A DNA stretch of 64,000 nucleotides from an uncultured Cytophagales bacterium (GTDB lineage Bacteria > Bacteroidota > Bacteroidia > Cytophagales > UBA9547), in NCBI GenBank assembly GCA_945957555.1, contig CAMFLX010000001.1, forward strand, positions 28,759 to 92,758. Direction: 5' to 3'. The notes under the pieces were generated by a model. The model had not been told where the DNA came from. It searched no databases and was given only the letters and a program-made list of their open reading frames with translations. Made by a program: the position numbers and the translations under genes. Below, piece by piece: positions 39,297-62,473 of this stretch; the first letter of the stretch is position 1, and every line of letters begins with the position of its first letter.

Positions 39297-39330
39297 CAAA
39301 AAACTAGATTCTCTTGAGTCTAGTTTTTTT
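39297..39330. terminator. bidirectional intrinsic terminator
   Basis: AAAAAACTAGA...TCTAGTTTTTTT with an inner CTC/GAG extension. The T-run overlaps the stop codon of the minus-strand kinase. Confidence 0.7.
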
Positions 39331-43880: not shown

Positions 43881-45866
43881 ATGCATGTTATCAATAAAAA
43901 TTTAAAACTTATCTTTTCTGTCCTTCTTGTCTTTGTAGCACCCTTCAATTCATATAGTTCTGATGGCCGTGAAACAGCGAGATACTATATTGATAAGGCT
44001 AAGGAGATAAGGTTTAGCGCTCCAGAGAAAAGTCTAGAATACCTTCAACAAGCACTAGTTCTTTGTATAAAATCTGATAATGTAGAAGAACAAGTAGAAT
44101 GCTATACTTTAATCGGGGATATAAATCTTCAAAACAAACTTTATGAAAGTGCATTAAACAATACATCCAAAGCATTAAATTTGAAAAACTCGATTACTAC
44201 TAGCAAAAAAACGTTCAAGAAACCAAAGACATCAAGAAATTCAATATCTAAAGGCGAAATCTATTTACAGTTAGCAAATGCTTATCATTTAAATAACAAA
44301 TCAGACGAGGCTTTAAAAATTCTGCAGAACAATACATATTTCGAAACGGAAAAGGAAAAAACGGATGCAGATCTATTAATTGCGGAGGTTTATAAAAGCC
44401 AAAAAAATTATAAAGAATCCTTAAAGCAATATGATAAACTACTTAAGAAAAACAATATCGATGTTAGCTCCAACGATCTGGCAATTATTAACTCTAAAAT
44501 CGCCGAGGTTTATCGTGATCAAAACATATCTGACAAATCTTTAGAATATTTGAAAAAAGCCAAGGTTGATGCACTCGAATCGAAAGACATTGATCTGATC
44601 AAAGATATCAACAACCTCATCAGCGAAGAGCTCAATGAAAACAACAACTACAAAGAGGAAATCAAGATAAGGGAGCAAAACTTAAACATTAGTATTTCAA
44701 AAAAGGATACCAGTTCATATATTAATGAAGCTGTAGCTCTCGCATATCTGTATCTGAGATCAAACCAGTTTAAAAAAGCTGAAGATCTCGCAAATAGGGT
44801 GATTTATTTTGCACAAACAAATCATAAACACATTAAGGTAGAAGCTATGGCCTATAAAGCTAAAGCAATACTTTACCAACTTAATGGAAACTACCCATTA
44901 TCAAACACTTATTATAAATATTATGCAAACACAATAGACACTCTTCTTAGATTAATAGATGAAAAGGAAGCAAAAAGCATGAAGACTAGTGCGCTATTTG
45001 CAGAAAAACAAAAACAAATAGATCTACTGGAAAAGGATGTTATGATCAATAAAAAAACCATTGAGGCCATGTCCAGTGCACAAACAGCAATAGATGAACG
45101 GATAGCTCGGCAAAAAATAATCATCTGGTCACTCACCCTAGGCCTCATACTCATCATTCTTTCTACATATTTAATTTATAAAAATGCACAAAGACGCAGG
45201 CTTGCCAACCAACTTCTCGCGCTAAAATCGCTCCGAAGCCAAATGAATCCTCATTTTATTTTTAACGCACTCAATTCAGTAAACAGCTTTATATCTATAA
45301 ACGACGAAAAGTCTGCAAACAAATACTTGGCTGATTTTTCAAGACTCATGCGAATGGTAATGGAAAATTCACAATATGAATTCATAAATCTTAGCCAAGA
45401 AACTGAAATTCTCACTTTATATTTGAGTCTTGAACATTTCAGATTTTTAAATAAATTTGAATATGAATTTATTATTGACGACCGCATAGACCGAGATTTC
45501 GTAAGTATACCACCAATGATTGTACAACCACATATAGAAAATGCTATCTGGCATGGCCTAAGGTATAAAGCAAATAAAGGTTTTCTGAAAATTCACATTT
45601 TCAAGTTAGATGAAGATATGATCAAAATAACCATTACCGACAATGGTATCGGTCGAACAAAGTCTCAAGAACTAAAAACCAAAAACCAAAAAAGCAATAA
45701 ATCTACTGGTATCAAAAATACAGAAAGCAGAATCCAACTCATAAAGGAAATCTATGGTAGAGATATTAGCATTAATATCATGGATGCAAACCCCAAAGAG
45801 AACGATACGGGCACTATTGTTGAAATAATCATACCATCATTCTTAAATCAAGAAAATCATGCTTAA
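43881..45866 (+). CDS. TPR-domain sensor histidine kinase of the LytS/His_kinase (PF06580-like) type
   Basis: Signal peptide, TPR-like repeats, one TM segment (IIIWSLTLGLILIILSTYLIY), LRSQMNPHFIFNALNSVNSFI, and a GHKL ATPase (VQPHIENAIWHG, DNGIG). Confidence 0.85.
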   Translation: MHVINKNLKLIFSVLLVFVAPFNSYSSDGRETARYYIDKAKEIRFSAPEKSLEYLQQALVLCIKSDNVEEQVECYTLIGDINLQNKLYESALNNTSKALNLKNSITTSKKTFKKPKTSRNSISKGEIYLQLANAYHLNNKSDEALKILQNNTYFETEKEKTDADLLIAEVYKSQKNYKESLKQYDKLLKKNNIDVSSNDLAIINSKIAEVYRDQNISDKSLEYLKKAKVDALESKDIDLIKDINNLISEELNENNNYKEEIKIREQNLNISISKKDTSSYINEAVALAYLYLRSNQFKKAEDLANRVIYFAQTNHKHIKVEAMAYKAKAILYQLNGNYPLSNTYYKYYANTIDTLLRLIDEKEAKSMKTSALFAEKQKQIDLLEKDVMINKKTIEAMSSAQTAIDERIARQKIIIWSLTLGLILIILSTYLIYKNAQRRRLANQLLALKSLRSQMNPHFIFNALNSVNSFISINDEKSANKYLADFSRLMRMVMENSQYEFINLSQETEILTLYLSLEHFRFLNKFEYEFIIDDRIDRDFVSIPPMIVQPHIENAIWHGLRYKANKGFLKIHIFKLDEDMIKITITDNGIGRTKSQELKTKNQKSNKSTGIKNTESRIQLIKEIYGRDISINIMDANPKENDTGTIVEIIIPSFLNQENHA

Positions 45867-46608
45867 AGCAATCATTGTCGACGACGAACAAGCCAGCCGA
45901 GATACTTTGTTCAACTATCTCAGCAAATATTGCGAAAATGTACAAGTACTAGCACAAGCTGAAGATGTTAAAACAGCCTTACCACTTATACACAAGCACA
46001 ATCCTGATATCGTATTTTTAGATGTGGAAATGCCTTACGGAAACGCCTTTGATCTTTTACAACAAGTAGGCGACATAACCTTTGAAACGGTCTTTGTTAC
46101 CGCATTCAGTCATTATGCTCTTAAAGCCTTAAATTTGAGTGCTTCATATTATATCCTAAAACCAATTGATATAGAAGAACTTGTTTCTGCCGTTGAAAAA
46201 ATTTCTGAAAATAGAAAAACAAAAAAAGAGAGTCTCCACAACAAGATAATTGTGGAAAACATCAATACTGTTAACAAACAACTCCAGAAACTAGTCCTAC
46301 CAAGGCTTGATGGTTTCGAAGTTGTTCAAATAAGTGATATCCTTCGTTGTCAAGCAAATGATAACTTTACAGAGTTCTTTTTTTTAAATGGTAAAAAAGA
46401 GCTCGTTTGTCGTACTCTTAAATTCTATGAAGACACCCTATCGGATTTTGGATTTATCAGGATCCATAAGTCTCATTTGATTAACAGTCAGTTTATCAAA
46501 CGCTATATAAAGGGTAAAAGTGGGACTATTATCATGGTTGATGGTTGTGAATTAGAACTTTCACAACAACGCAAAGAACAGTTTTTGGAACAATTTGGTA
46601 AAATATAA
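45859..46608 (+). CDS. LytR/AlgR-family response regulator (REC + LytTR)
   Basis: AIIVDDE...DIVFLDVEMP receiver domain and a LytTR C-terminus (FIRIHKSHLINSQFIKRY). It has an 8-nt overlap with the kinase gene. Confidence 0.9.
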   Translation: MLKAIIVDDEQASRDTLFNYLSKYCENVQVLAQAEDVKTALPLIHKHNPDIVFLDVEMPYGNAFDLLQQVGDITFETVFVTAFSHYALKALNLSASYYILKPIDIEELVSAVEKISENRKTKKESLHNKIIVENINTVNKQLQKLVLPRLDGFEVVQISDILRCQANDNFTEFFFLNGKKELVCRTLKFYEDTLSDFGFIRIHKSHLINSQFIKRYIKGKSGTIIMVDGCELELSQQRKEQFLEQFGKI

Positions 46609-46741: not shown

Positions 46742-47629
46742 ATGGAACGTAAACACTTCTTGAAACTCATGTCTCTTACGCCATTTTTCGGTATCGCACA
46801 AAAAATGCACGTTTTAAACGAACTTTCTAACCATCTCCCCAATACAGAAACGATGCCTGTTCTCTTTGTTGGCCACGGAAGCCCGATGAATGCGATAGAA
46901 GACAATATTTTTTCCCAAGGAATGAAAGAAATAGGGAAAAAAATCAATAAACCAAAAGCTATTCTGATGGTTTCGGCTCATTGGGAAACAAAGGGTACAT
47001 TTGTAACAGCTCAAAGCTTGCCACCAACCATTCATGATTTTGGAGGCTTCCCTCAAGCACTATTTGACGTACAGTATCCTGCTCCTGGTAGCAAATGGCT
47101 AGCAGAAGAAACACAAAAGACAGTGACAAGTACAAATATTGAACTCAATGACAAATGGGGCTTCGATCATGGTTGCTGGAGCGTTACAAAAAATATGTTT
47201 CCAAATGCAGACATCCCCATCATTCAGCTGAGTTTGGATTATACACAAACAGCACAATACCATTATGACTTAGCAAAACAGCTTGCATCCTTACGTAAAA
47301 AAGGAGTTCTCATCATCGGAAGTGGTAATATGGTTCATAATTTTAAGTATGCTATGGTAAAGGGGAACGATTTCAACGCACCTTTTGCACATGATTGGGC
47401 CATAGAAGCCAATACTACTCTTAAAAAACTGATATTAGACAATGACTACAAATCCTTAATCAATTATAAAACATACAGCAAAGCCCTCGATCTTTCTGCT
47501 CCAACACCAGAGCATTATTTACCAATGCTTTATGCCATAGCCTTGAGGGACAGAGAGGAATCAATAGATTTCTTTAACGATGTTACAGTAGGCGGCTCCT
47601 TTTCCATGACATCAATAAAAATTGGCTAA
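46742..47629 (+). CDS. ygiD: 4,5-DOPA dioxygenase extradiol (YgiD family)
   Basis: PVLFVGHGSPMNAIEDN, VSAHWET, DHGCWSV and GSGNMVHN motifs. Confidence 0.85.
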   Translation: MERKHFLKLMSLTPFFGIAQKMHVLNELSNHLPNTETMPVLFVGHGSPMNAIEDNIFSQGMKEIGKKINKPKAILMVSAHWETKGTFVTAQSLPPTIHDFGGFPQALFDVQYPAPGSKWLAEETQKTVTSTNIELNDKWGFDHGCWSVTKNMFPNADIPIIQLSLDYTQTAQYHYDLAKQLASLRKKGVLIIGSGNMVHNFKYAMVKGNDFNAPFAHDWAIEANTTLKKLILDNDYKSLINYKTYSKALDLSAPTPEHYLPMLYAIALRDREESIDFFNDVTVGGSFSMTSIKIG

Positions 47630-47740
47630 GAAATATTTGTTATTTAAAAATTCTTCTATCAAATATTTTTGGATCACGCGTATCTAGTTTATATTAGAAA
47701 TTATTAAAAGTCATCAATAACATATAAAACAAGAAAAACA

Positions 47741-48469
47741 ATGCAAAAGCTTTTATTTTTGTCAATTTATATTCTGATAATCAATGTTTTCGCTGAAAAT
47801 CATACTTTTTACACAATCGCAAAATCAGGCCTCAACCTCAGGTCAGAAGCAAACACTTCTTCAAAAGTATTGGCAACAATAGCCTATGGTGAAGAAGTGA
47901 TTCTCGTTACTAATTATGTAGCCGACATAAAAGTCGACAATATGTCTGGCTATTGGGTAAAAGTAAAATATAAGAACCTAGTGGGTTTTTTGGTAAACGT
48001 ATATTTGGTTCCTAACAAGGCTCCTCTCGGAACCATAAATTCGCTCTCTGACTACTTTTCGCAAATCAGCACTATGGCCTACAAAACAGAAGAAATCAAA
48101 AACGGTAATTTCACAGATGATAGCGAAGGCTATAGCTCAATACAAAAAACGCTATATAAAAATGGTATGGAAATTCATTACTTTACAGGTTATGAATTTG
48201 GTGAGCAAACCTTTTTCTTACCCAATTGGAGCAAAGAAAACACTTTTCTATTACTCAAATCCATTACTGACTTTAAAATATTGAACGATTTTTCTATCAT
48301 GTACCCGACGGTTAGTAAAGTATATAAGAAAGGTGAAAAAACTGTGGATGTTAAAGTTGATGCAAATAGTGGCGTTATCCATATTTCTTATGAAGAAGGT
48401 GCGATGTATGAGATCACGATCACTTACCAAAGCAATCAAGCTGTTGTTACTCTTTCTTCAGGTGTTTAG
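47741..48469 (+). CDS. secreted SH3 (SH3_3-like) domain protein
   Basis: Signal peptide, then LNLRSEANTSSKVLATIAYGEEVILV...GYWVKVKYKNLVGFL, typical of bacterial SH3 domains. Confidence 0.55.
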   Translation: MQKLLFLSIYILIINVFAENHTFYTIAKSGLNLRSEANTSSKVLATIAYGEEVILVTNYVADIKVDNMSGYWVKVKYKNLVGFLVNVYLVPNKAPLGTINSLSDYFSQISTMAYKTEEIKNGNFTDDSEGYSSIQKTLYKNGMEIHYFTGYEFGEQTFFLPNWSKENTFLLLKSITDFKILNDFSIMYPTVSKVYKKGEKTVDVKVDANSGVIHISYEEGAMYEITITYQSNQAVVTLSSGV

Positions 48470-48613
48470 TTTTTCTACTTTCCTAGATTTTTATTGTAAA
48501 CCATAATGAAAAAGTAAATCTTTTAAAATTATTTTTCTGACCATTACGTTATATATTTAATAATCCATTTAAAAAAGTTTCATTATTATTATTTTTACAC
48601 ATAAATAGCCCAA

Positions 48614-51600
48614 ATGCACAAAGACGAAGATATATTAATTGATAAAATAAAGGATTTTAGAAGAAAATTCTTTCTAAAATCGGTTTACAAAGGTATTGTT
48701 CTGTTTGTTATTCTTCTTGTTTCAGCTTTTATTGCTATCAATGTACTAGAATATTACGGCAATTTCAATAGTATCATAAGAAGTGTCTTATTTTTTTCCT
48801 TTTTGAGTATAGCACTTTGGGGCGGTATAAAGTATATTGCAATACCCAGCTATAAATTTATCAACAAAGAGAAAGAACTTGACAATCTAAAAACAGCAGA
48901 GCTCATCGGACAAGGGTTTCCTTCTGTAAAGGATAAACTGGTAAACTATCTACAGCTACTCCAAAATTCAGAAAACAATACTCTGGCTCAAGAAGCATTA
49001 AAACAAAAAAAGGGGGAACTTAAATCCGTTCCCTTTTTGCAAATCATAAGATTTGAAGAAATTAATAAGTATCTAAAATACAGTGTAATACCGATTATTA
49101 TACTCTTGGGAATATTCATGATAAGCCCTGCCATATTTAGTGAAGGTTCTAATAGGATCATCAACTATAATAAAACTTTTGTTCTTGATGCACCATTTAA
49201 GTTTACAATCAAAAACAAAAACTTAAAAACTTTTCAGAATGAAGATTTTATATTAAACGTTGGACTTTCAGGACAAGCCCTACCAGAAAATATTTATGTA
49301 GAATACAACGGGCGAAAGATCAAGCTTGAGAATGTAAATGGCAATTTCTCTCATATTTTCAAAAACATCCAAAATGACATCATTTTCAATTTAGAAGCAT
49401 CAGGATACTCTAGCAATAACTACAAGTTAGAAGTTATTCAAAAACCAACGCTCAATGGCTTTAACATAACACTCGATTATCCGTCATACATCGGTAAAAA
49501 ATCTGAAACGCTCGAAAACAGTGGAAACATGACAGTACCAGAAGGTACCCTGATAACTTGGGATATAAATGCAAGACAAACAGATACCGTAATTTTTACT
49601 TTTGGTGATCGTGAAATAAAAAAAATAGACAAGTCTCTGATTAACAGTCATTTCAAAACAAGTAAAAAAATTCTTAACAATATTCCCTATAATGTTACCC
49701 TATTAAAATCTGGTGTTGATAAAAGAAGTGAAACCAATTTTAATATTGAAGTTATAAAAGATCAATACCCTAGTATTCTATCAGAGTCCGTCTCAGATAC
49801 CGTACTATATAAAGAAATAAATATAGGGGGAAGTATTAAAGATGATTATGGTTTTAGTAGATTAACGCTGATCTACAGCATACAAGATGAGAGTGGTAAG
49901 CACATTAGTCAAAAATTAATACCAATACCAATAAACCCAAAAAATTATTCACAGAACTTCTATTATAGCTGGAACATAGACACACTTAAAATCAAGCCAG
50001 GAGAACGTATTACTTACTATTTACAAGTATGGGACAACGATGGAGTAAATGGCGCAAAATCTGCAAAAACCAATGTATATGAGCTCAAATTACCAAATCA
50101 GAAAACGATAGAAGAACAAATTCAAAATTCTGCTGAAAAGACGGAAGGCCAATTAGACAATTCTATGTCTAAAGCCATGGAATTACAAAAAGATTTTGAA
50201 AAGCTACAGAACAAAATAAAGGGCAAGAAAAACCTAGACTGGCAAGACAAAAAAGCAATTGAAGACTACATCAAAAAACATGATGCTCTCAAACAGGATA
50301 TTGAAAAACTAAGTGAGCTCAACAAAAACCTCAACGAAAAACAGGAGAAATTCACCGAGGAAGATCTAAGAATCGCAGAAAAAGCAGAAAAACTACAAGA
50401 CCTCATACAAAACATAATGGATGAAGAAACAAAAAAACTATGGGAGGATCTTCAAAAACTTATGGAAGAGAAAAACAAGGATTCTGAGATTCAAGATCTA
50501 TTAAACAAAATCGACCAAAAAGATGAATCTATGGAAAAAGAATTGGATAGGGCCATGGAATTCTATAAACAACTACAATTTGATAGAAAACTAGAAGAAA
50601 ACATTGAAAAGCTTCAGGAACTAGCTGATAAACAAAAAGAACTTTCTGATAAATCCAACGAAAAAAATACAGATACTAAAGAGCTAGAAAAACAACAGGA
50701 GGAACTCAACAAGAGTTTTGAAGAAATAAAGAAAGAGATGAAAGAGATGAAAGACATCAACAGTTCTCTTGAAAACAAACACGACCTCAAGGATCTTGAT
50801 CAAATGGAGAAAGATGCTGAGCAAAAAATGCAGGAAGCCAAGGAAGAGCTCAATCAAGGAGACAAAAAGGATGCAAACAAAAAGCAGAAGGAAGCCTCTA
50901 ACAAAATGCAAGACATGGCAAACCAAATGCAAAAAATGAAGCAAAGCGAAGAGCAAAAGCAAAATGAGGAAAACATGGATGACTTGAGGCAAATCCTTGA
51001 AAACCTCATCAAACTCTCTTTTGACCAAGAAGAATTAATGAAAAACCTAAAAAAGGTCAACAAATCTGATCCAAAATACCTACAATACAGCCAAGAACAA
51101 CTAAAACTACGTGATGATGCCAAGGTAATAGAGGATAGCCTCTTCGCTCTTTCCAAAAGAGTACAAGAAATAGAAAGCTTTATCAACAAAGAAGTAGGAA
51201 ACATGAAAAACGACATGGATGAAAGCTCGAAATTGATCAAAAAGCGAGAACCCATGTTTGCAAGTGCCAAACAACAAGCAGCTATGACCTCTATGAACAA
51301 CCTAGCGCTCATGCTAGACGACGTTCTCAGAAGTATGCAAGAGAAAGACCAACAACAGAACCAAGACTCCAAGAGTGGCTCGGGAAGTTGCAAGAAACCG
51401 GGATCTGGCAAAGGACAAGGCAAAAAGAAAGGGAATAAACCTTCACCAGGCCAAATGCAAGAGCAACTAAACCAACAAATGCAACAACTCATCAATGGAG
51501 GCAAAAGTGGCTCAAAAATGTCTGAACAATTGGCCAAAATGGCAGCCCAACAAGAACGGATTAGAAAAGCTCTCCGAGAGATGGAAAACATGAGAAAAAT

Positions 51601-52012
51601 GGGGGAGAAGGGAAAAGGAAATTCCGAGAAACCCGGCGAGAATGGCAAAGAAGGAAATCAAGGTAAAAACGGACAATCAGGGAGTGGGGGAGATGCCGAT
51701 AAAATGCTAAAGGAAATGGAAAAGATCGAGGAAGAAATTGTAAACAAAAGGATCAATCCAGAACTTATCAAAAGACAAAAGGAGCTAACCACAAGGCTCC
51801 TTGAATTTGAAAAATCATTACGTGAACGAGAAATGGAAGAAAGAAGAGAATCGAAAACAGGAAAAGACATGGAAAGAACGATTCCTCCTTCACTCTTGAA
51901 ATATTTTTCAGAAAAAAACAAGGTTACAGAGATGATTAGGACGGTTCCTCCAAATCTTAACCCATATTACAAGAAAAAAGTAAATGATTTCATACAAAAT
52001 CTAAACCCTTGA
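48614..52012 (+). CDS. giant membrane-anchored protein with a long K/E/Q-rich coiled-coil region (DUF4175-like)
   Basis: 1132 aa with two N-terminal TM segments and a beta-rich middle. It then has about 550 aa of charged low-complexity coiled coil including G/K/S-rich patches. Confidence 0.6.
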   Translation: MHKDEDILIDKIKDFRRKFFLKSVYKGIVLFVILLVSAFIAINVLEYYGNFNSIIRSVLFFSFLSIALWGGIKYIAIPSYKFINKEKELDNLKTAELIGQGFPSVKDKLVNYLQLLQNSENNTLAQEALKQKKGELKSVPFLQIIRFEEINKYLKYSVIPIIILLGIFMISPAIFSEGSNRIINYNKTFVLDAPFKFTIKNKNLKTFQNEDFILNVGLSGQALPENIYVEYNGRKIKLENVNGNFSHIFKNIQNDIIFNLEASGYSSNNYKLEVIQKPTLNGFNITLDYPSYIGKKSETLENSGNMTVPEGTLITWDINARQTDTVIFTFGDREIKKIDKSLINSHFKTSKKILNNIPYNVTLLKSGVDKRSETNFNIEVIKDQYPSILSESVSDTVLYKEINIGGSIKDDYGFSRLTLIYSIQDESGKHISQKLIPIPINPKNYSQNFYYSWNIDTLKIKPGERITYYLQVWDNDGVNGAKSAKTNVYELKLPNQKTIEEQIQNSAEKTEGQLDNSMSKAMELQKDFEKLQNKIKGKKNLDWQDKKAIEDYIKKHDALKQDIEKLSELNKNLNEKQEKFTEEDLRIAEKAEKLQDLIQNIMDEETKKLWEDLQKLMEEKNKDSEIQDLLNKIDQKDESMEKELDRAMEFYKQLQFDRKLEENIEKLQELADKQKELSDKSNEKNTDTKELEKQQEELNKSFEEIKKEMKEMKDINSSLENKHDLKDLDQMEKDAEQKMQEAKEELNQGDKKDANKKQKEASNKMQDMANQMQKMKQSEEQKQNEENMDDLRQILENLIKLSFDQEELMKNLKKVNKSDPKYLQYSQEQLKLRDDAKVIEDSLFALSKRVQEIESFINKEVGNMKNDMDESSKLIKKREPMFASAKQQAAMTSMNNLALMLDDVLRSMQEKDQQQNQDSKSGSGSCKKPGSGKGQGKKKGNKPSPGQMQEQLNQQMQQLINGGKSGSKMSEQLAKMAAQQERIRKALREMENMRKMGEKGKGNSEKPGENGKEGNQGKNGQSGSGGDADKMLKEMEKIEEEIVNKRINPELIKRQKELTTRLLEFEKSLREREMEERRESKTGKDMERTIPPSLLKYFSEKNKVTEMIRTVPPNLNPYYKKKVNDFIQNLNP

Positions 52013-52074
52013 TAATTATTTACGTATAGTATAATTTTGTATAGAATTTAGAATAACGCGTGTTCCGATTATAT

Positions 52075-52473
52075 ATGGATAGTATAAGATTACAGATACC
52101 CTCATTACCAGAAAATGTTAGGATAGTGGAGAGTTTCATTGATAACGCCAAAGAAAAATTTCACATTGATGACGATGTGTATGGTAATATAATGGTTGCC
52201 GTAACCGAATCAGTAAACAATGCTATTATTCATGGCAATAAATGTGATAAGAGTAAAAATGTAAATATCAGCTTAGAAATGGGCGATCATGCATTAAAAT
52301 TTGTCATAGAAGACGAGGGCAAAGGCTTTGACTACCAAAACTTACCTGATCCTACAGCTCCAGAAAATCTGCTAAACACTGGTGGTAGGGGCATTTTCTT
52401 AATGCAGAACCTATGCGATAAAGTAGAGTTCTTCAACGAGGGCAAAAAAGTAGAACTAAGTTTTGCTGTATAA
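52075..52473 (+). CDS. RsbW-like anti-sigma regulatory factor / GHKL ATPase (HATPase_c_2)
   Basis: ATG at 52075 (MDSIRLQIPS...). It has VTESVNNAIIHGN (N-box), DEGKGFD and GGRGIFLM. Confidence 0.7.
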   Translation: MDSIRLQIPSLPENVRIVESFIDNAKEKFHIDDDVYGNIMVAVTESVNNAIIHGNKCDKSKNVNISLEMGDHALKFVIEDEGKGFDYQNLPDPTAPENLLNTGGRGIFLMQNLCDKVEFFNEGKKVELSFAV

Positions 52474-52901
52474 TGGCTAAGATCAACTTTATCGCTGAAG
52501 ACGTAGATATACGGTTTTTCAAAAATAAAGAGAAGATCAGAAATTGGATTAAAGAAGTACTAGCATCCCATAAGGCAAAGCCTATTGAGATCAACTACAT
52601 CTTTTGCTCGGATGAATATATTCTCAAAATAAACAAAGAATATTTAGACCACGATTACTATACAGACATTATCACTTTTGACAACTCCGAAAAAGCTGGA
52701 GAAATCGAAAGTGATATTTTTGTTTCTATAGATCGAATAAAAGATAATGCCCTAGCTCATCAAGAAACTTTTGATAGAGAATTTCATAGAGTACTCATAC
52801 ATGGCATACTCCATCTTGTTGGATATAAGGACAAAACAGATGATGATGAAGCCAAGATGAGAGAGAAAGAAAACAAATGTTTAGCTATTATTGATCTATA
52901 A
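52473..52901 (+). CDS. ybeY: rRNA maturation endoribonuclease YbeY
   Basis: HRVLIHGILHLVGYKD zinc-binding H-x-x-x-H-x-x-x-x-x-H motif; 142 aa; TAATG overlap with the upstream gene. Confidence 0.92.
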   Translation: MAKINFIAEDVDIRFFKNKEKIRNWIKEVLASHKAKPIEINYIFCSDEYILKINKEYLDHDYYTDIITFDNSEKAGEIESDIFVSIDRIKDNALAHQETFDREFHRVLIHGILHLVGYKDKTDDDEAKMREKENKCLAIIDL

Positions 52902-52940
52902 TATAAGAGGTGTTCCACGAGGAACACCTCTTATATTATA
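52897..52940. terminator. 44-nt perfect hairpin (20-bp stem, ACGA loop) overlapping the ybeY stop codon
   Basis: TATAATATAAGAGGTGTTCC (52897-52916) pairs with GGAACACCTCTTATATTATA (52921-52940), read directly. The core is TGTTCC-ACGA-GGAACA. Confidence 0.75.
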
Positions 52941-52947
52941 ACACTTA

Positions 52948-53112
52948 TCAAACGAAACACCTTACCGAAAATAATATACCTAAATGATATATGCCTGAAA
53001 AAGAGTAGCTAATCATATTGACCAGCCAAAAAATAGCTTTCAAATAACAACGTATATGGTATTGTACGTATATAAATCGCTCAATCATAAAAGCGGAAAC
53101 AGAAATTAGCAT
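52948..53112 (-). CDS. possible 54-aa hydrophobic small protein (below the ORF-track cutoff)
   Basis: My translation is MLISVSAFMIERFIYVQYHIRCYLKAIFWLVNMISYSFSGIYHLGILFSVRCFV. The stop lies 7 nt from the bidirectional hairpin. There is no homology evidence, and the minus strand is T-rich, which can create such ORFs by chance. Confidence 0.2.
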   Translation of the reverse strand: MLISVSAFMIERFIYVQYHIRCYLKAIFWLVNMISYSFSGIYHLGILFSVRCFV

Positions 53113-54253
53113 AAAACAATTAGATTCTGTAAGATAGGTTCCATTATTATCCCAAGAATTGACTGTGGTAGTGGATCAATGTACCATTCTTGATTTATAA
53201 TAGCGAATTGGTCATTGGTATATCCTCAATCAAGAAACAACCCTGAAAAGGTTGAATATGAATAAGCTGTCCCGAACTTCTGAGAGGCTCATGAGCATTG
53301 AGGGGTTGGAAGTCGAAGGTCATTCAACGACACAGAAACGGATTGAATTATACGTGATAATATACATAAAGCTGGGTTTCTACGGCACCTATAATTGGAT
53401 AACTGCCAGGTTTTTGCCTTCACGCTTCCTCGAGCTTCGTACGCGGCTATTCATACTCAATTTCTCCAGCGTTGTTCTTGGTCTGCCTCAAATAATCGTA
53501 TAATCATTGATTATGGAACGCATGATTACCCTGTATCAAAAATAAGTCCCAAAAGTCTTGGAATTAAAGGAAACATAACGATATCGGCTGACGATCTATA
53601 AGGGTGTATACAAAAAGCTTTTTGGTGTCTTACTTTTATTCTAAAACTTATCTAAGCAATTCTTAAAATAAATATAGTTTAATATAGTCGATTCCTATCT
53701 AATTAGAGTTTCTGGTTATTAACCAAAAGGTTTTTCTAACTAAAATATTTGTGATTCTTAGAAATAATATCAAAAAATAATGTGATATCTTTCCAAGAAA
53801 AGAATTCTATAGAACTTCAAAGGAAATAATCCCAACGACTTATATGATCCATACATGTAAATATGAATGTATCCACCATATAAATTCACTTACATCTTAC
53901 TAGAAACAACTGATAAACAAACTAAAGAATTAGTTTTTAGATTTGAAAGAGTTCTATATTAAATAGTTTTAGAAATCGAAAATCAGAAATAATGGATCAT
54001 TGAATTAATTCGATTTCACTTTGATTATGAAATCATATTCCATAAACTGACAAAAGATATGATAATTCGTTAACAAGCAATACAACCTAGTAACTGACGA
54101 AATGGACATCTCTTGCCTTACGATAAAATCAAAACGAGGATACTTTAGTCATTTAGAAAACTCTAATGTTTTCAACCATAGAAAATACCAAATCAAGGCA
54201 GATCTCAATACTATCCGAACCAACTAATACAAAAGAAACTAAAAGCATTCAAT

Positions 54254-54273
54254 ATGTTCCCCGTGGAACACTT
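54254..54273. repeat. copy 1 of the 20-bp repeat ATGTTCCCCGTGGAACACTT (TGTTCC-CCGT-GGAACA hairpin)
   Basis: Read directly. It is identical to 54912-54931 and related to the core of the ybeY hairpin. Confidence 0.85.
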
Positions 54274-54911
54274 TAAAGTTTAAATACAAATTATACAAAA
54301 ACCAAAAGGTAAAATTCAATTATTAAAACAGGTATATGAATCAAGAAGGCAGATAAAACAAACTAAGTAGGCAATAAAAATAAACTACATTGTACCTACG
54401 TTATAAAAGGATCCCGAAGAACTAGACACAAACTTCTGACTTCATACAAAAAATACTATGTAAACAAAAATTAAGCTTGCTTCATTATATTTATCGCTCA
54501 GAAAATGATAAAACTTCAATTCTAGTAAAGCCCTTCATATATACATAAAGAAAGAAGAAGAAAGGCTTATGTAGATGCAGTAATCTGTCTGACATCAAAC
54601 AATATTTACCATTTCTTAACAGTTGGAAAAAGACCAAAAAGTAATTCATCTAAACTACTCTACTCAAAAGTACAATGGGTAAATCCTACAAAAACCCATT
54701 AAACCATAACTTTAACTAAAAACACATTCTTAAAATACTAACAAGAAAATCCATGTCAATGATCATATAAAAAACAATAAGAAGCACATATCAATTTTAT
54801 TTTACACTGGTTATATCTGCCAATCGTTTGCTTCTCACTAACTTTGCAGATTAAACAATTTTGAGTAAAATTCTCAATTCAGTTAATTATAAAGAATAAA
54901 AGTTTAACAAA

Positions 54912-54931
54912 ATGTTCCCCGTGGAACACTT
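54912..54931. repeat. copy 2 of the 20-bp repeat ATGTTCCCCGTGGAACACTT, 15 nt upstream of the mnmG ATG
   Basis: Read directly. It also opens a 9-codon ORF, MFPVEHLYT-stop (54912-54941), ending 4 nt before the mnmG start. Confidence 0.85.
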
Positions 54932-54945
54932 ATATACATAAACAA

Positions 54946-56811
54946 ATGTTTAAAGAGTACGACGTAATAGTAGTAGGGGCAGGACATGCTGGAAATGAAG
55001 CAGCAGCAGCAGCAGCAAACATGGGTTGTTCTGTTCTTCTTATCACAATGGACATGACAAAGATTGGTCAAATGTCCTGTAATCCGGCAATGGGTGGTGT
55101 CGCAAAAGGGCAAATAGTTAGAGAGATCGATGCTCTTGGTGGTTTATCAGGAATAGTTACCGACAATACAACTATACAGTTTAGAATGCTAAATAGATCA
55201 AAAGGCCCTGCCATGTGGAGCCCAAGGGCACAATGTGATAGATGGAAATTTGGAGAAGAATGGAGAATCCAATTAGAAGCCATTCCAAACCTAGATTTTT
55301 GGCAAGAAATGGTAAGTGGTCTTATCGTAAAAGACGGACATATAAAAGGTGTAAAAACAGCATTAGGCATAGAAATATTAGCAAAGTCTGTAGTACTTAC
55401 CAATGGTACTTTCTTAAATGGTCTTATACATATTGGTGAAAAAAACTTTAGTGGAGGTAGAACTGGCGAGAAGGCTGCTACGGGAATCACAGAACAATTA
55501 CTTCAATTGGGTTTTGAAAGTGGAAGAATGAAAACAGGCACACCAGCTAGAATAGATGGAAGAAGTATAAATTATGCATTAACAGAAGAACAAAAGGGAG
55601 ATGAAAATCCTGAGAAGTTTTCCTATTCGGATGCTACCAAAGCACCAGAAAAACAGATGAGCTGTTGGATCACTTATACTAATGATGAAGTTCATGAAAT
55701 ATTAAAAACAGGATTCGAAAAATCCCCTATGTTTCAAGGAAGGATAAAAGGACTAGGACCAAGATATTGCCCTTCCATAGAAGATAAAATAAATAGATTC
55801 TCTGAAAGGGAAAGACATCAGCTGTTTATAGAACCTGATGGATGGAATACTTGTGAAATTTATCTAAATGGCTTTTCTTCTTCACTTCCAGAAGAAGTAC
55901 AATTAAAAGCGCTTAGAAAGATAAAAGGTTTGGAGAATGTAAAGATATTCAGACCCGGTTACGCTATAGAATACGACTATTTCCCACCAACACAATTAAC
56001 GCTTACCCTTGAAACAAAACTGGTTAAAAACCTCTTTTTTGCCGGACAGATTAATGGTACGACTGGTTACGAAGAAGCTGCTGCCCAAGGACTGATGGCT
56101 GGAATAAATGCTGCCCTAAATGTAAAAGGGGAGGAGTCTCTCATACTTAAGCGCGACGAAGCATACATAGGTGTATTAATAGATGACCTAATAAACAAAG
56201 GGACTGAAGAACCTTATAGGATGTTCACTTCTAGGGCAGAGTACAGAATCTTACTAAGACAAGATAATGCAGATATTAGACTTACAGAAAAAGGCTACAA
56301 AGTTGGACTGGCTACAGAAAAGGCTCTTGATAAAGTAAAGGAGAAACTTAATGAAACAAAAAGAATAACAACTTGGTTAAACACTACCAAAATAGATCTC
56401 TCTACCATCAACCCTTGGCTTGTACAAAAAGAAAGTGCAGAATTACGAGAGAAAACATCTTTGATGAATTTACTAAAAAGACCAAATATAAGTATAACTG
56501 ATTTTTATGAAATCAACCAAGATGTAAAAGAATACCTCGATACACAAAAAAGAGAGCATTTAGAACAAGCAGAAATCATAGCTAAATATGATAACTATAT
56601 TGAAAAAGAAAGATTAATGGCTGATAAACTGAGATCTCTAGAAGATCTAAAATTGCCTAGCACGATAGATTACAATAACTTCACAGCACTGTCTAATGAA
56701 GCCAAAGACAAACTTAAAAAAATAAGACCTTTAACTTTGGGCCAGGCTTCAAGAATATCTGGTATATCGCCTTCAGATATATCAATAATCATGATTCAAA
56801 TCACAAAATAA
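54946..56811 (+). CDS. mnmG: tRNA uridine 5-carboxymethylaminomethyl modification enzyme MnmG (GidA)
   Basis: YDVIVVGAGHAGNEAA, GQMSCNPAMGG, RYCPSIEDK, FFAGQINGTTGYEEAAAQG and a C-terminal PLTLGQASRISGISPSDIS. Confidence 0.95.
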   Translation: MFKEYDVIVVGAGHAGNEAAAAAANMGCSVLLITMDMTKIGQMSCNPAMGGVAKGQIVREIDALGGLSGIVTDNTTIQFRMLNRSKGPAMWSPRAQCDRWKFGEEWRIQLEAIPNLDFWQEMVSGLIVKDGHIKGVKTALGIEILAKSVVLTNGTFLNGLIHIGEKNFSGGRTGEKAATGITEQLLQLGFESGRMKTGTPARIDGRSINYALTEEQKGDENPEKFSYSDATKAPEKQMSCWITYTNDEVHEILKTGFEKSPMFQGRIKGLGPRYCPSIEDKINRFSERERHQLFIEPDGWNTCEIYLNGFSSSLPEEVQLKALRKIKGLENVKIFRPGYAIEYDYFPPTQLTLTLETKLVKNLFFAGQINGTTGYEEAAAQGLMAGINAALNVKGEESLILKRDEAYIGVLIDDLINKGTEEPYRMFTSRAEYRILLRQDNADIRLTEKGYKVGLATEKALDKVKEKLNETKRITTWLNTTKIDLSTINPWLVQKESAELREKTSLMNLLKRPNISITDFYEINQDVKEYLDTQKREHLEQAEIIAKYDNYIEKERLMADKLRSLEDLKLPSTIDYNNFTALSNEAKDKLKKIRPLTLGQASRISGISPSDISIIMIQITK

Positions 56812-56886
56812 AAGTTGGTTCTTGATTAATAAAGTTTAATTTTTAAAATTAAGAGGATCTTAATAATTCTCTCTCTTGTATATACA

Positions 56887-58410
56887 ATGAAAAAAATAGC
56901 GTTAGTGATAAGTGTTAGTGGTACATTATTGTTGTTAAAATCTTGTGCCAATATTGGCAGCCCTAGTGGAGGAACAAAAGATACAACAGCACCTTATGTA
57001 AAAACTATAGTTCCAGAAAACAAAACTACAAACTTTACAGGAACCAGTATTTCTGTAGATTACTCTGAATTCGTTGACTTAAGTACCGTGGATAAAGAAT
57101 TAGCTATAGTTCCTCATGTTGAGAAATATGAAATTGAAAAGGGAACCAAAAGTCTAAAGATCAAATTCAAATCGAAACTTGAAAAAAACACCACCTATCA
57201 AGTATTTTTTGGTAAGGGTGTAAAAGATGTAAACGAAGCAAATGTATGCAAGCTAAAATCTTTAGTGTTCTCTACTGGACCATACCTAGACTCCTTGAGT
57301 ATTACAGGTACTACAACTTATCTACCTACAAACAAACCTACAAACTGCTTTATAGGTTTGTATAAATCCAGTGATACTTTAAATATTAGTAAGCATCTAC
57401 CTTATTATTGGTTAACTTCTGAAAACGGCAAATTTTCCTTTGAGAATATCAAAGAAGATAATTATGAAGTATATGCCTTCATTGATAACAACAAAAATAA
57501 ATTACTAGACAAAAAAGAAGCTATAGCATTCCTTACAAGTAAAGTTAACCCAAAACTTATGAAAACTGTGGAGCTAAAGCTAAGCCAGCAAAATCTTGAC
57601 ACATTAAAACTTATATCTACTACGGATACTAAAGACTTTTATCAAATAAAGTATTCTAAAGGTATAAATAAGTGTGAAGTATCTGATAGTCAAATATTTA
57701 AAATTGAAAATGAAAAGATATTAATTTTTAAGGGTACAGAAGACTCTCTTACGTCTACCATACTAGTCGAAGATACCTTAGGTACAGAGATTAAAACAAA
57801 ACTACACATAGACAACAAAGCAAAGCCCTCAAAAAACAAAACATTTATTAAATCCATTAATGCTACCGCAATACCCACTGAAAAATATGTCTTTCTCACC
57901 GAAAGAAAACTTTCAAAAATAGATCACGACTCCATAAACATTTCTTACGATACCAAGAAGCTTGGTAAGGAAGATCTCAAGATCGTAAAAGATTCTATTT
58001 ATTTTATTATACCTCAATACAAAGACTCATTAAAGATACAGTTTAAAAAAGGCTCATTCATCTCACTATTCAATGATACCCTAAGTGGTATTAATACTAT
58101 TCACAAAAACTTCGATGAGACCAATTATGGTCTCATTTCAGGAAAGATAGAGTTTGATGGCAACATCGTACTACAGCTCTTGAAAAACAATAGGGTAGAG
58201 TACAGTACGAGAAATAAGGTATTTGAAGCCAAATATATGGAAGCTGGTGAGTATACCATTAAAGTAATCAAGGATACTGATAATAATGGTTATTGGACCC
58301 AAGGTGATCATAGAATTAAAAAACAAGCAGAAGACATATTTTTTAACCCAAAAACCATTCTTTTGAAGGCAAATTGGGAGCTAAAAGACCTGTTGATAAA
58401 AGTTGAATAA
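56887..58410 (+). CDS. lipoprotein with an N-terminal SbsA/Big_5-like Ig domain
   Basis: Lipobox LLLKSC, then GSPSGGTKDTTAPYVKTIVPENKTTNF, typical of Ig-like (Big_5) domain proteins; 507 aa. Confidence 0.55.
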   Translation: MKKIALVISVSGTLLLLKSCANIGSPSGGTKDTTAPYVKTIVPENKTTNFTGTSISVDYSEFVDLSTVDKELAIVPHVEKYEIEKGTKSLKIKFKSKLEKNTTYQVFFGKGVKDVNEANVCKLKSLVFSTGPYLDSLSITGTTTYLPTNKPTNCFIGLYKSSDTLNISKHLPYYWLTSENGKFSFENIKEDNYEVYAFIDNNKNKLLDKKEAIAFLTSKVNPKLMKTVELKLSQQNLDTLKLISTTDTKDFYQIKYSKGINKCEVSDSQIFKIENEKILIFKGTEDSLTSTILVEDTLGTEIKTKLHIDNKAKPSKNKTFIKSINATAIPTEKYVFLTERKLSKIDHDSINISYDTKKLGKEDLKIVKDSIYFIIPQYKDSLKIQFKKGSFISLFNDTLSGINTIHKNFDETNYGLISGKIEFDGNIVLQLLKNNRVEYSTRNKVFEAKYMEAGEYTIKVIKDTDNNGYWTQGDHRIKKQAEDIFFNPKTILLKANWELKDLLIKVE

Positions 58411-58724
58411 CTTGTGGATAAGTGTGGACAACAATAGGAACAAGTTCTACACACTTTGATTATTGTAGATAGTTGTGTTTAACTATTACTTATCCTCAAT
58501 TATACACACATAAAGTTATCCCCAATTTAATATCCCCCATAAAGGGTGATACAAAACATAATTAATTGAATAACAAATAAATATATTGTTGATAACTATG
58601 TGGAAATAGTAAAAAGTTTATTTGAGTAATCAACATTCCACTTTTCAAAATTAATTTATCAACAAATCCACAGCCTTAATAATAATAGTAATTATATTTA
58701 TATCATTTATCATTATTATATTAT
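58391..58724. other. candidate chromosomal replication origin (DnaA-box cluster + AT-rich unwinding region)
   Basis: There is one perfect TGTGGATAA (58413-58421). Six 9-mers have one mismatch to TTATCCACA/TGTGGATAA (58391, 58423, 58490, 58516, 58587, 58656) and two have two mismatches (58599, 58664). A roughly 90 percent AT tract follows at 58676-58724. The region sits one gene from mnmG/gidA. Confidence 0.6.
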
Positions 58725-60548
58725 ATGTGTAAAACTCATTCGAAAGGACCTCTAATTTTAACATTCATCATTGTTTTGTTTGGAAACCTATTTTCCCAAA
58801 TAATAGGTGAATTGCAGCTTGCAAACGAATACTATAAATCTGGAGAATATAAAAAAGCAAAAATACTTTACGAAGAACTTCTGAAGGATAAGTCTAAAGT
58901 AGATTTTATCTATGATAACTATTTGGCAACTCTTGAAAAGCTTAACGAATACATTGCGGCGGAAAAGTTTATCAAGAAGAATGTGAAGAAGTTTGAGGAT
59001 AACCCAAAATACAAGATAGATCATTACTTGATATTCAAAAAGCAAAATAAAACCGAAGAAGCTAACAAGCTTAAAGAAAAGTACGCGGAACAGATCTCCA
59101 CAAATAGGAATCAAATATTTGATGCTTATGCAATACTTGCGGATAGGGGAGAGCATAATTTCATAATTTCATTACTGAGCAATGCTAGGAAAAACATGAG
59201 AGAGCCCACATTGTTTGCAGAGCAGTTGGCTAGTTCGTATAAGGCTCTTGGAAATAGGGAGATGATGATCACAGAAATGATCAACATGGTCAAGTATGAA
59301 AGTAATGATCAGGAGCTTTTAAAAAACAAGCTTCAACCACTTCTTGACAACGAACAAGATCTTGATATTTTGCAGAAATTGCTTATTGAAACTATTCAGA
59401 AAAATCCGGAGGACGATAATGCCACCCTATTGTTGGTTTGGGTACTTATTCAGAGAAGAGAATTTAATATGGCCCTTGTTCAAGCTAAAGCTTATGATAG
59501 AAGAAAAAAGGTAGGTGGAGAGCAGATCTATCAATTGGCGAAGATAGCTTTTGAAAATAAAGACTATGAGACCGTCATAGAAGCTTCTGGTTATGTTAAA
59601 ACTGTTTACCCTAGTACTGATACGTATTTTGCAATTTCGATGCTGTCACTGCGTTCTAAAGAAGAGATAATAAAACAGAGATACCCTGTAGATAGGTCTA
59701 AAGTTTCTGAATTAGTAATGGACTACGCGGACGTTTGTAAAAAAAACGCGGCTACGCCGTATTGTGCTGAAGCTTTAAGGAAAGAAGCCCTACTGCTCGC
59801 CTTTTACCTTAACAAGCAAGATACAGCCATTAAAATGCTTGAGAGCATTATTAAAACGTATGCCTATGATAGAAATATTGTTGACAGGGCAAAACTCGAT
59901 CTAGGCGATTTGTATATTCTTAAAGATGATCATTGGGAGAGCGTTTTACTCTATACCCAAGTAGAAAAAACACAAAAGGAAAATTTGTTGGGTCATGAAG
60001 CAAAATTTAAAAATGCTAAGGTGCATTACTATACAGGAAATTTCGACTTGGCGGAAGAGCAGTTAGATGTACTAAAACTAGCTACCTCACGCGAGATTGC
60101 AAACGATGCTTTGTACTTAAGTCTGATCATTCACATGAATAAGGCCGAAGATAGTTTGCAAAATGCACTCAATATTTTTGCCAAAGCAGATCTCGAAAAG
60201 TTTTCACAAAATCTGGAAGCTGCAGAAGTAAGCTATAAAAAATTGATCGATGAATATCCTAGAGATGCTTTGGTAGATGATGCACTATGGAATCTTGCTG
60301 AGATTTCAATCAAGAAACAACTATACAGCCAGGCCATTTTGCTGTTGGATCAAATATTGGAAAAGTATCATGATGATATTTTTGCAGACGATGCGTTGTT
60401 TACTAAAGCAGAACTCTATGAAATAAAACTTAAGGATTCTTTAAAAGCGATGGAGTTTTATCAAAAGCTCATGACAGATTATCCATCAAGTATTTACACT
60501 AGTGAGGCAAGAAAGAGATTTAGGAAACTTCGAGGAGATAAATTATGA
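58725..60548 (+). CDS. TPR-repeat protein
   Basis: 607 aa with an N-terminal hydrophobic segment and multiple TPR-like units (e.g. ANEYYKSGEYKKAKILYEELL, ALWNLAEISIKKQLYSQAILLLDQILEKY, ALFTKAELYE...AMEFYQKLMTDYPSS). Confidence 0.7.
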   Translation: MCKTHSKGPLILTFIIVLFGNLFSQIIGELQLANEYYKSGEYKKAKILYEELLKDKSKVDFIYDNYLATLEKLNEYIAAEKFIKKNVKKFEDNPKYKIDHYLIFKKQNKTEEANKLKEKYAEQISTNRNQIFDAYAILADRGEHNFIISLLSNARKNMREPTLFAEQLASSYKALGNREMMITEMINMVKYESNDQELLKNKLQPLLDNEQDLDILQKLLIETIQKNPEDDNATLLLVWVLIQRREFNMALVQAKAYDRRKKVGGEQIYQLAKIAFENKDYETVIEASGYVKTVYPSTDTYFAISMLSLRSKEEIIKQRYPVDRSKVSELVMDYADVCKKNAATPYCAEALRKEALLLAFYLNKQDTAIKMLESIIKTYAYDRNIVDRAKLDLGDLYILKDDHWESVLLYTQVEKTQKENLLGHEAKFKNAKVHYYTGNFDLAEEQLDVLKLATSREIANDALYLSLIIHMNKAEDSLQNALNIFAKADLEKFSQNLEAAEVSYKKLIDEYPRDALVDDALWNLAEISIKKQLYSQAILLLDQILEKYHDDIFADDALFTKAELYEIKLKDSLKAMEFYQKLMTDYPSSIYTSEARKRFRKLRGDKL

Positions 60549-60556
60549 TGAGTTGC

Positions 60557-62473
60557 TCAAAGTTTTTTTAAACTTTTGTCACAGTTTTCACAATAGTTCT
60601 TTTTGAGGTAATCATCTTCCAAAAGTTGGAATGATATACCGCCTTCACTATAGGCGGCATCATACATTTTGCAGAACCGCTCTGGGTTCACATTATGTGC
60701 GTTTAGCAATATGGTTCTGTACGCAGGTTTGGAAGTATATTTATTGTCGCTAATGGTTAAGTTTATAAAATAGAACAAAAGATCTTCTGTGATGTTGATT
60801 TTACTTACTCTGTATTCTATCATCTTAATCGCCCAATCTTGTTTGTTGTAAGCAGTAAAATATTTTGCAAGCCTTATCAAGTCTTCGTCGCTGTAAGGAG
60901 TGTTTTTGTAGTTTGAAAAAATATACTGTAGTGCCTTATCCTTTTCTGCATATTTTTTTTCCACCAGCAAGTATTCACACATAATGAGATGATAGTTTAC
61001 CATCATTCTTCTCACAATTCTCGGATCATATTTCAACTTTTCGAGCTCCTTAATCAATACCAACATTTTGTTTCTGTCAATAATCAGTTCGTTTTGTGAA
61101 AACAAGCTTAGATAAGTAACAGCAATGTTGTACTTGATATTTAAGTTTTTGGGATCGAGCTCTTGAAGTCTTTGAAAAGCAGTAAGTGCTGAAATCTCGT
61201 TACTAATCTGTTGATTTGATTTAAAAACAACCCTATTGCTAAGTATTGACAATAAAGAAGCAACTTCTGGAACTTCTAAATCCTCTAAGATCTTGGAATT
61301 GTACTTTTGAGTTTCTACGTTTTGGAAGATGACCTGCTGAAGCTCAAGTGCTAGAGCAATATTCTTTTGTTCGATGGCCTCATTGAACTTGAGGATCATC
61401 TGTTTTTCGGTTATGTCTAGATAGGTGTTCTTCTTTTCCATTTCAAGAAATAATACCGCTTTTCTGTGATTTTTAAGAATGGGTTCTATTTCTTCCTTCG
61501 AAGATTTTTTTTCGAGTTCTATTTTAATCTCTTCTTTACTAAGATTTTTGAGGTATGCGTATTTCGTATTTCCAATATCGTTTAAAAACTCTACCCAGTT
61601 TTCTGATGCTGAAACGTCTCTTTTGATCTTGATATTTTGGAAGGACTCTAGGGCACTTGTAATACTTTCAGCCCTTTTTTGCTGTAATTCTATATTTTTT
61701 TCTAATAACCCCTCTACAGATGAGTAAGCTCTGATTTTAAGAGAAGTAATGTTGTAGTAATTAAGCAATAAAGAGTCTCTGAGGGGAAATAAATCTTCTG
61801 CTTTATACTCATACTTGTTTTTCTCAAAAGGAATGGTAAATTCCATTTTTTTGTGAAAAGTAAGTTGTCTTTCATTTCTCATAGCTGGATCTTCATTAAA
61901 GGCAAGTGTATCCATGTAAAGATCAAGCTTCAAAAGCTCTAGTTTATGCTCAGGCAAATCATAAAATCTCATGTACCTGCACATTTCCTTTTTTTTAATA
62001 AGGATTAGGTTAAACTCTAAATCTTTGGAATCAGCGAGATCTTCAGGAAGTTCACAAAGAGGCACCAATATATCGTAACTATTTTTATCACCGACGTTTG
62101 ATTTTTTGATATCTTTCAGATATACCGGTCGGGTCATAATACCCTTTATAAAAGAGTTACTTCTGATTTCTTCTTTATCGCAATCGTACTGTGATTTTCT
62201 CAGGATATCAAGAGCTAAGGCGTCATTTTTATGGTCAATAAGCAAATGAAACCAATCAGCGTCAGTCATCCCAAAAAAAACAAAAGAACCAGATTTGAAT
62301 ACTCCATAGCGAACGTCTGCAGGCATACTCAATAATTTAGACTCACATTCTACGCAGCTTTTGGAAGGATGCAAAGGATTGTATTTAATTCCAAAAGTGT
62401 TTCTGTCTTTTTTTGATTGTCCTAAACTGGAAAAATGGAATATAGCAAATATTAGAAAAATGTACTTTTTCAT
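60557..62473 (-). CDS. secreted hypothetical protein (short OmpA-like segment, helical repeat C-terminal half)
   Basis: Signal peptide MKKYIFLIFAIFHFSSLGQ. The segment RAYSSVEGLLEKNIELQQKRAESITSAL resembles the OmpA-family core. I did not recognise the rest. Confidence 0.35.
   Translation of the reverse strand: MKKYIFLIFAIFHFSSLGQSKKDRNTFGIKYNPLHPSKSCVECESKLLSMPADVRYGVFKSGSFVFFGMTDADWFHLLIDHKNDALALDILRKSQYDCDKEEIRSNSFIKGIMTRPVYLKDIKKSNVGDKNSYDILVPLCELPEDLADSKDLEFNLILIKKKEMCRYMRFYDLPEHKLELLKLDLYMDTLAFNEDPAMRNERQLTFHKKMEFTIPFEKNKYEYKAEDLFPLRDSLLLNYYNITSLKIRAYSSVEGLLEKNIELQQKRAESITSALESFQNIKIKRDVSASENWVEFLNDIGNTKYAYLKNLSKEEIKIELEKKSSKEEIEPILKNHRKAVLFLEMEKKNTYLDITEKQMILKFNEAIEQKNIALALELQQVIFQNVETQKYNSKILEDLEVPEVASLLSILSNRVVFKSNQQISNEISALTAFQRLQELDPKNLNIKYNIAVTYLSLFSQNELIIDRNKMLVLIKELEKLKYDPRIVRRMMVNYHLIMCEYLLVEKKYAEKDKALQYIFSNYKNTPYSDEDLIRLAKYFTAYNKQDWAIKMIEYRVSKINITEDLLFYFINLTISDNKYTSKPAYRTILLNAHNVNPERFCKMYDAAYSEGGISFQLLEDDYLKKNYCENCDKSLKKL

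Follow-up and report, generated by a model that had tools for sequence, protein, structure and literature searches.

We investigated the DNA between ybeY and mnmG (gidA) in a stretch of 64,000 nucleotides (hereafter the window) from contig CAMFLX010000001.1 of an uncultured Cytophagales bacterium (assembly GCA_945957555.1), where an unusually long gap carries three related palindromes that are well supported as parS sites, the binding sites of ParB. The gap is bounded on the left by ybeY (52473-52901, plus strand; Pfam YbeY, E = 8e-30) and on the right by mnmG (54946-56811, plus strand; Pfam GIDA, E = 2e-165). It measures 2044 bp and every other intergenic gap between the long open reading frames (ORFs) of the window measures at most 585 bp, which bears out an earlier note, made from the letters alone, that had singled out its anomalous length. 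The longest ORFs within it, 53252-53503 (83 aa) and 53395-53601 (68 aa), overlap each other and both start with TTG, and the rest of the gap holds only ORFs of 31-54 aa; the statement of that note that nothing lies across 53602-54903 is therefore correct at a 60-aa threshold but not in absolute terms. The GC-richer core and the A-rich, G-poor tail that it described are both real by composition: the core (53150-53600) has a GC content of about 42%, vs. 26% for intergenic DNA, and the tail has an AT skew of +0.18 and a GC skew of -0.18, its GC content (27%) and negative GC skew being similar to those of the other intergenic DNA in the window. Only one tandem repeat was seen in the gap (a 22-nt unit in two copies), in keeping with the claim that there is no tandem array. 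Four other metagenome assemblies carry this island at 100% identity (five independent assemblies in all), and it is 97.7% identical in strain L098, whose MnmG is 99.4% identical; the island is thus not an assembly artefact.

Within the 64 kb, the motif TGTTCCNNNNGGAACA has only three occurrences (52911, 54255, and 54913), vs. 0.1 expected by chance, and the three hairpins, claimed in the earlier note to be related to one another, do share it, with the common core TGTTCC-NNNN-GGAACA. Each copy is one mismatch away from the ParB-site consensus TGTTNCACGTGNAACA (PMC10197239; PMC7022226; PMC7383237), and no other site in the 64 kb has two or fewer mismatches to that consensus. The consensus has been written TGTTTCACGTGAAACA (PMC10197239) and, for Pseudomonas and Myxococcus, TGTTCCACGTGGAACA (PMC7022226), and a rule for parS is a 16-bp inverted repeat TGTTNCACGTGAAACA with at most two mismatches (PMC10197239). 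A literature search with the motif returned almost exclusively papers on ParABS, a system that is widespread, Bacteroidales included (PMC10197239).

The leftmost copy, parS1 (TGTTCCACGAGGAACA; 52911-52926; one mismatch), has the central change CACGAG, and its ACGA variant is also found at the equivalent place in relative L099. It forms part of a perfect hairpin overlapping the stop codon of ybeY (inverted repeat I2, 52897-52940; 20-nt arms, 100% complementary), which folds as RNA with -29.7 kcal/mol on the plus strand (z = -8.8) and -32.2 kcal/mol on the minus strand. This hairpin resembles a bidirectional terminator, and parS1 probably doubles as one. The other two copies, parS2 (54255-54270; one mismatch) and parS3 (54913-54928; 18 nt 5′ of the mnmG ATG), both read TGTTCCCCGTGGAACA, a clade-specific variant with the centre CCCGTG, and their RNA stems are weak (6 bp, z-score not significant). 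Together with its left flank (54225-54273), parS2 shares 80-84% identity with the parS3 region (54884-54931), mostly through the parS core: the left flank alone is not significantly similar to the parS3 region (z = 0.1, 471 of 1000 shuffles as high), and the similarity between the flanks of parS2 and parS1 is marginal (z = 3.0, 12 of 1000 shuffles as high). Motif, enrichment and clustering, conserved position, and proximity to a predicted origin all agree in identifying the three hairpins as parS sites. The internal organisation claimed in the earlier note is accordingly real as far as hairpins, core, and tail are concerned, and it is accounted for by the presence of parS sites, an identity that the note had missed.

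To see how general the arrangement is, 80 Bacteroidota genomes were retrieved via MnmG and scanned for the 16-mer TGTTYCACGTGRAACA. One to four copies lie within 500 bp upstream of mnmG in 64 of the 80 genomes, with 112 copies of the palindrome in these 500-bp upstream segments vs. 22 in the remaining 948 kb, and all seven close relatives examined have parS upstream of mnmG. The gap between ybeY and mnmG has a median of 89 bp (62 genomes), consistent with the statement in the earlier note that the two genes are close neighbours in Bacteroidota, and the larger gaps mostly contain genes. Across the 80 genomes and the relatives, we saw only two noncoding expansions comparable to that of the window: a 2340-bp spacer with two parS sites in relative L087, and the gene-free 1043-bp ybeY-mnmG spacer of Terrimonas ferruginea (L077), which holds five. 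A parS site also occurs just after the mnmG stop codon (about 1870-1950 nt past the mnmG start) in 25 of the 80 genomes, so that mnmG is bracketed by parS; the named genomes among these are largely Flavobacteriales (Flavobacterium, Winogradskyella, Algibacter).

The asymmetric form of parS2 and parS3 is fixed in the clade. All 13 parS copies upstream of mnmG in six lineages with MnmG identity of at least 89% read TGTTCCCCGTGGAACA in either orientation (the window, at 54255 and 54913, and relatives L085, L087, L093, L096, and L097), and relatives with 75-78% MnmG identity have the canonical parS palindrome. The altered base is position 6 of the half-site (C in place of A), which is one of the two bases that separate the Noc-binding site (NBS) from parS (PMC7383237). 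The clade variant could reflect an altered or co-evolved ParB specificity, or the spread of a single copy.

The location of the island relative to the replication origin is also as the earlier note had proposed. With a DnaA box taken as TTATCCACA with at most one mismatch, the 314-bp spacer that separates a Big_5-domain gene from a TPR gene (58411-58724; 25% GC) contains seven boxes, one of them perfect, and the same spacer contains four to nine boxes in six relatives. More widely, a cluster of at least five DnaA boxes lies 3.9-4.5 kb past the mnmG start in 13 loci, of which the named ones belong to Cytophagales. The cumulative GC skew has its minimum near 48-50 kb of the window. This spacer, the candidate oriC of the earlier note, is well supported as such by its conserved DnaA-box cluster, and the parS sites lie 3.5-5.5 kb from it (parS3 at 3.5 kb), as expected for a chromosomal centromere. 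A reading of the palindrome half-site TGTTYCACG as a DnaA box (like TTATNCACA) was dropped: the motif is parS, and the DnaA boxes cluster elsewhere.

We then compared the ybeY-mnmG spacer on the contigs of close relatives found through MnmG. Strain L098 has the same island with 30 substitutions (1.5%) and 12 indel columns. The substitutions show no codon-phase (third-position) bias, the substitution rate is highest in the core (53150-53600; 2.4%, plus a 9-bp indel that is an insertion in L098), and a 1-bp deletion at 53026 shifts the frame of a 54-aa minus-strand ORF (52948-53112), which has no match in Pfam or NCBIfam and is probably not a gene. Beyond this strain the similarity stops abruptly on both sides. 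Relative L099, 89% identical in nucleotides across ybeY, is homologous up to 52929, the end of parS1, and its next 234 bp are unrelated. Relative L097 (MnmG 97.7% identical, 87% nucleotide identity over 4.4 kb) aligns only from 54788 on and is unrelated over the 386 bp upstream; its aligned part, the last 158 bp of the gap, comprises the mnmG promoter, parS3, and the leader (54788-54945, plus strand; 77.5% identity over 160 nt), including a Bacteroidota-type -7 box TAACTTTG at 54839-54846 (plus strand) that matches TAnnTTTG and that we take to be the promoter element. The variable segment thus lies between parS1 at its left edge and the promoter of mnmG, with parS3, at its right. Apart from the core and parS2, it consists of three AT-rich lineage-specific spacers: 52941-53149, which contains the 54-aa ORF; 53601-54254 (25-30% GC), with no similarity to the islands of relatives; and the A-rich 54271-54787, which is unalignable with L097.

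Other relatives have something else at this place. L087 (MnmG 90% identical) has a different noncoding island of 2340 bp with its own degenerate repeats, whereas L096 (MnmG 91% identical, and 95% to L087) has a 206-bp spacer with two parS sites; L085 and L093 (89%) have real genes interleaved with three parS copies, and L091 and L094 (77-78%) have spacers of 45-81 bp. The repeats of L087 (L087:5858-6901) are direct and degenerate, number about six to seven, recur every 133-195 nt with 63-93% identity, and are missed by TRF. In Smith-Waterman comparisons, the interiors of the islands have z ~0, vs. z = 44-82 for the oriC spacer and z = 10 for a 75-bp spacer in the same pairs of genomes, which indicates that the interior has been replaced between lineages and has not merely drifted. 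In two lineages at least, and probably in a third, the DNA between the parS sites is hypervariable and free of genes. Growth of the spacer by tandem duplication between parS sites was considered and not established, the interiors being dissimilar (z ~0). These comparisons do not support a specialised locus or a conserved long noncoding RNA (ncRNA), as proposed in the earlier note: relatives with 87-89% nucleotide identity cannot be aligned over the interior, while their other spacers align strongly, a near relative of the island-bearing L087 has only 206 bp, and relatives do have equally long spacers that are not conserved, which is one half of a condition that the note itself had named as telling against a functional locus, the other half being a lack of transcription.

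Along 47000-62473 of the window, the divergence from L098 is mosaic, which suggests recent recombination tracts around the origin: the LigB and SH3 genes (47000-48469) differ by 9-10%, the Big_5 gene by 0.2%, and the HATPase_c_2 gene (52060-52473) by 0%.

Taken together, we consider it likely that the island is an origin-proximal parS cluster that has been stretched by lineage-specific, probably functionless DNA. The island would then be the origin-proximal centromere region of the chromosome, with ParB dimers nucleating on the three 16-bp palindromes. In Bacteroidota such sites are usually found within a ybeY-mnmG spacer of only some 50-200 bp. By analogy with established ParABS biology, ParB-CTP clamps would load at parS, slide over the adjoining DNA, and recruit ParA and SMC, and the origin region would be segregated and organised as a result. 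In this lineage the spacer would have been lengthened to 2 kb by lineage-private DNA, with parS1 kept at the ybeY stop codon in its terminator-like hairpin, parS3 kept in the mnmG leader behind the conserved promoter, and parS2 representing an additional interior copy. The interior (52941-54787, parS2 aside) most likely has no sequence-specific function, because it is not conserved. It may have arisen by insertion or duplication and then decayed to the composition of intergenic DNA, leaving one GC-richer relic at 53150-53600, and it may be tolerated, as DNA between parS sites would simply be covered by the ParB complex.

Several points weigh against this reading of the island as a stretched parS cluster. 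Neither parB nor parA is present among the 28 window ORFs scanned, and the cognate protein is assumed; all three sites depart from the perfect palindrome at the centre, which could reduce affinity; and parS1 might act as a terminator only. The GC-richer core is not accounted for by a stretched parS cluster. Moreover, each of two sister lineages has kept noncoding DNA of about 2 kb here, and between two strains the island has persisted with only 1.5% substitutions; on both counts the island could have a function that depends on its length or is specific to the lineage.

As to the source of the filler, the core could be the relic of a gene or a lineage-specific RNA. The interior may possibly be the decayed remnant of horizontally acquired genes, or of a mobile or phage element, inserted between parS sites; we hold this tentatively, as somewhat unlikely, and it is compatible with a stretched parS cluster. 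The GC content of the core is coding-like (42% vs. 26% in intergenic DNA), and in related lineages real genes do lie among the parS copies here: L085 and L093 have an acetyltransferase and an ORF of 173 aa, the latter cut down to 82 aa in L093, and L092 has two small ORFs. Within the core, a stop-free frame of 68 aa (53395-53598, plus strand) has a marginal 48-aa match to phrog_21834, a family of unknown function (E = 8.5e-5, 23 bits), and in tblastn against phages its best similarity is to the C-terminal ends of P1/P2-type tail-fibre proteins (E = 0.3). The phrog_21834 match is, however, not extended by read-through or frameshift, and we regard it as an unconfirmed lead that is probably due to chance. 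Nor was significant protein similarity found in any frame. The six-frame stop-free segments of the island had none to 80 and then 133 related loci, to the rest of the window, or to Pfam and NCBIfam; a 99-aa segment searched with HMMER against 1.84 billion representative proteins returned two matches, both repeat-protein artefacts; and the 68-aa segment had no match in a word-indexed protein database. The island has no match to plasmids and phages in blastn (distant mode), no transposase by Pfam and NCBIfam, no integrase, no convincing terminal repeats, and no second copy in the window or in the loci of relatives that were compared. The decayed mobile element or gene suggested in the earlier note is thus not recognisable in protein, phage, or plasmid searches. 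Two specific classes were rejected on the same results: a pseudogene, as no substantial part of the island has significant translated similarity, and an insertion sequence or miniature inverted-repeat transposable element, with no transposase, no further copy in the window or compared loci, and no plasmid or phage match.

That the interior encodes one or more lineage-specific ncRNAs seems to us improbable. The candidate would be about 300 nt long on the minus strand and would run across the core from a TAnnTTTG -7 box at 53544-53537 to a terminator-like hairpin at 53254-53238. Three terminator-like sites lie on the minus strand at 53006-53254, vs. 0.8 expected; the minus strand of 53220-53520 folds with z = -2.2; and, in our reading, the change G53250A in L098 preserves pairing in the terminator stem, as G-U, on the minus strand. 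Against this, TAnnTTTG is expected by chance 1.7 times per kb and the fold z-scores of the core are alike on both strands (about -2). The core is also the fastest-evolving part of the island, as noted above, and of the four L098 substitutions that fall in I1, a long inverted repeat, three disrupt pairing; a conserved RNA structure was rejected on the basis of these folds and substitutions. With no homologue in relatives beyond the same species, covariation gives no support. Rfam 15 returned no family at the gathering score for the island, matches at E < 10 being only miRNA and snoRNA models on the hairpin and none of them meaningful, and no match at the loci of four relatives; ARAGORN found no tRNA or tmRNA in the island, so the earlier note was right that it holds neither of these, and no known RNA family is recognised in it.

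A more elaborate version of the parS reading would make the parS-bracketed ybeY-mnmG spacer a hot spot in which recombination, either at the parS palindromes or between them, repeatedly adds, exchanges, and removes lineage-specific noncoding segments, with the spacer kept gene-free as a loading platform for ParB and SMC and with the asymmetric CCCGTG reflecting a co-evolved ParB specificity or oriented loading; we think this quite improbable. It is very unlikely that the palindromes are not ParB sites at all and serve solely as intrinsic terminators, or as an operator for a transcription factor controlling mnmG. The very stable hairpin of parS1 at the ybeY stop codon, the copies just past the mnmG stop codon in 25 of 80 genomes, and the position of parS3 in the mnmG leader are what such a function would predict, but the motif is conserved as a sequence and not just as a structure, it agrees with the universal parS consensus, the RNA stems of parS2 and parS3 are weak (6 bp), and the copies cluster near the DnaA boxes as chromosomal parS sites do. 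That the island belongs to oriC itself, serving as an unwinding element or as a region bound by DnaA, is scarcely credible: it is AT-rich, adjoins mnmG, and lies near the local GC-skew minimum, and the oriC of E. coli adjoins gidA (mnmG), but no DnaA box (at most one mismatch) is present in 52902-54945 vs. seven at 58411-58724, and the latter spacer is conserved in sequence and box content among relatives whereas the interior of the island is not.

The locus is otherwise largely ordinary. A gene for a HATPase_c_2 anti-sigma-factor-like protein (137 aa; 52060-52473) abuts ybeY, whose first base is also its end coordinate. The two genes are syntenic in those close relatives whose contigs cover that side, and a DUF4175 gene of about 1100 aa precedes them. 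Elsewhere in the window, two adjacent paralogous 7TMR-DISM sensor histidine kinases (39329-41434 and 41474-43570, minus strand; 701 and 698 aa) adjoin a pair formed by a TPR/His_kinase gene and a LytTR response regulator at 43881-46608, and a 638-aa ORF with no Pfam domain (60557-62473, minus strand) is conserved in L098, where it is likewise unannotated.

A noncoding island that looked mysterious can thus be annotated as a parS centromere and origin neighbourhood in an uncultured Cytophagales lineage. The ybeY-parS-mnmG order is found across the phylum, and in Cytophagales oriC follows about 4 kb downstream; this landmark can help to place the origin on contigs of Bacteroidota metagenome-assembled genomes, on which dnaA is often a poor guide. 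Two features may be of interest for work on ParB: a fixed asymmetric parS that is NBS-like at one specificity position, and hypervariable gene-free DNA bounded by parS.

Among the closest known counterparts, the standard ybeY-parS-mnmG spacer of Bacteroidota has the same flanking genes in the same orientation and parS at the ybeY end and in the mnmG leader, but it measures about 89 bp with one or two parS sites, vs. 2044 bp with three in the window. Origin-proximal parS clusters of other bacteria (parS1-4 of Pseudomonas aeruginosa, and those of Myxococcus xanthus and Bacillus subtilis) are likewise made of 16-bp TGTTCCACGTGGAACA-like palindromes, in several copies within a few kb, by oriC and mostly in intergenic or promoter DNA. 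The window differs from them in that no ParB is encoded among its scanned ORFs, in that two copies have the fixed asymmetric CCCGTG and parS1 has CACGAG, and in that the copies lie 1.3 and 0.66 kb apart across gene-free, lineage-specific DNA and not across genes or short spacers. In the gidA(mnmG)-oriC-mioC region of E. coli, as generally known, mnmG similarly lies within a few kb of a DnaA-box cluster; E. coli, however, lacks ParABS and parS, and the oriC candidate of the window is downstream of mnmG, past the Big_5-domain gene. Finally, the clade parS half-site has C at position 6 like the NBS of Firmicutes (TATTTCCC-GGGAAATA), but it retains G at position 1, the other half-site is canonical parS, and Noc is a protein of Firmicutes, so the likeness of the clade parS to the NBS is one of resemblance and not of membership.

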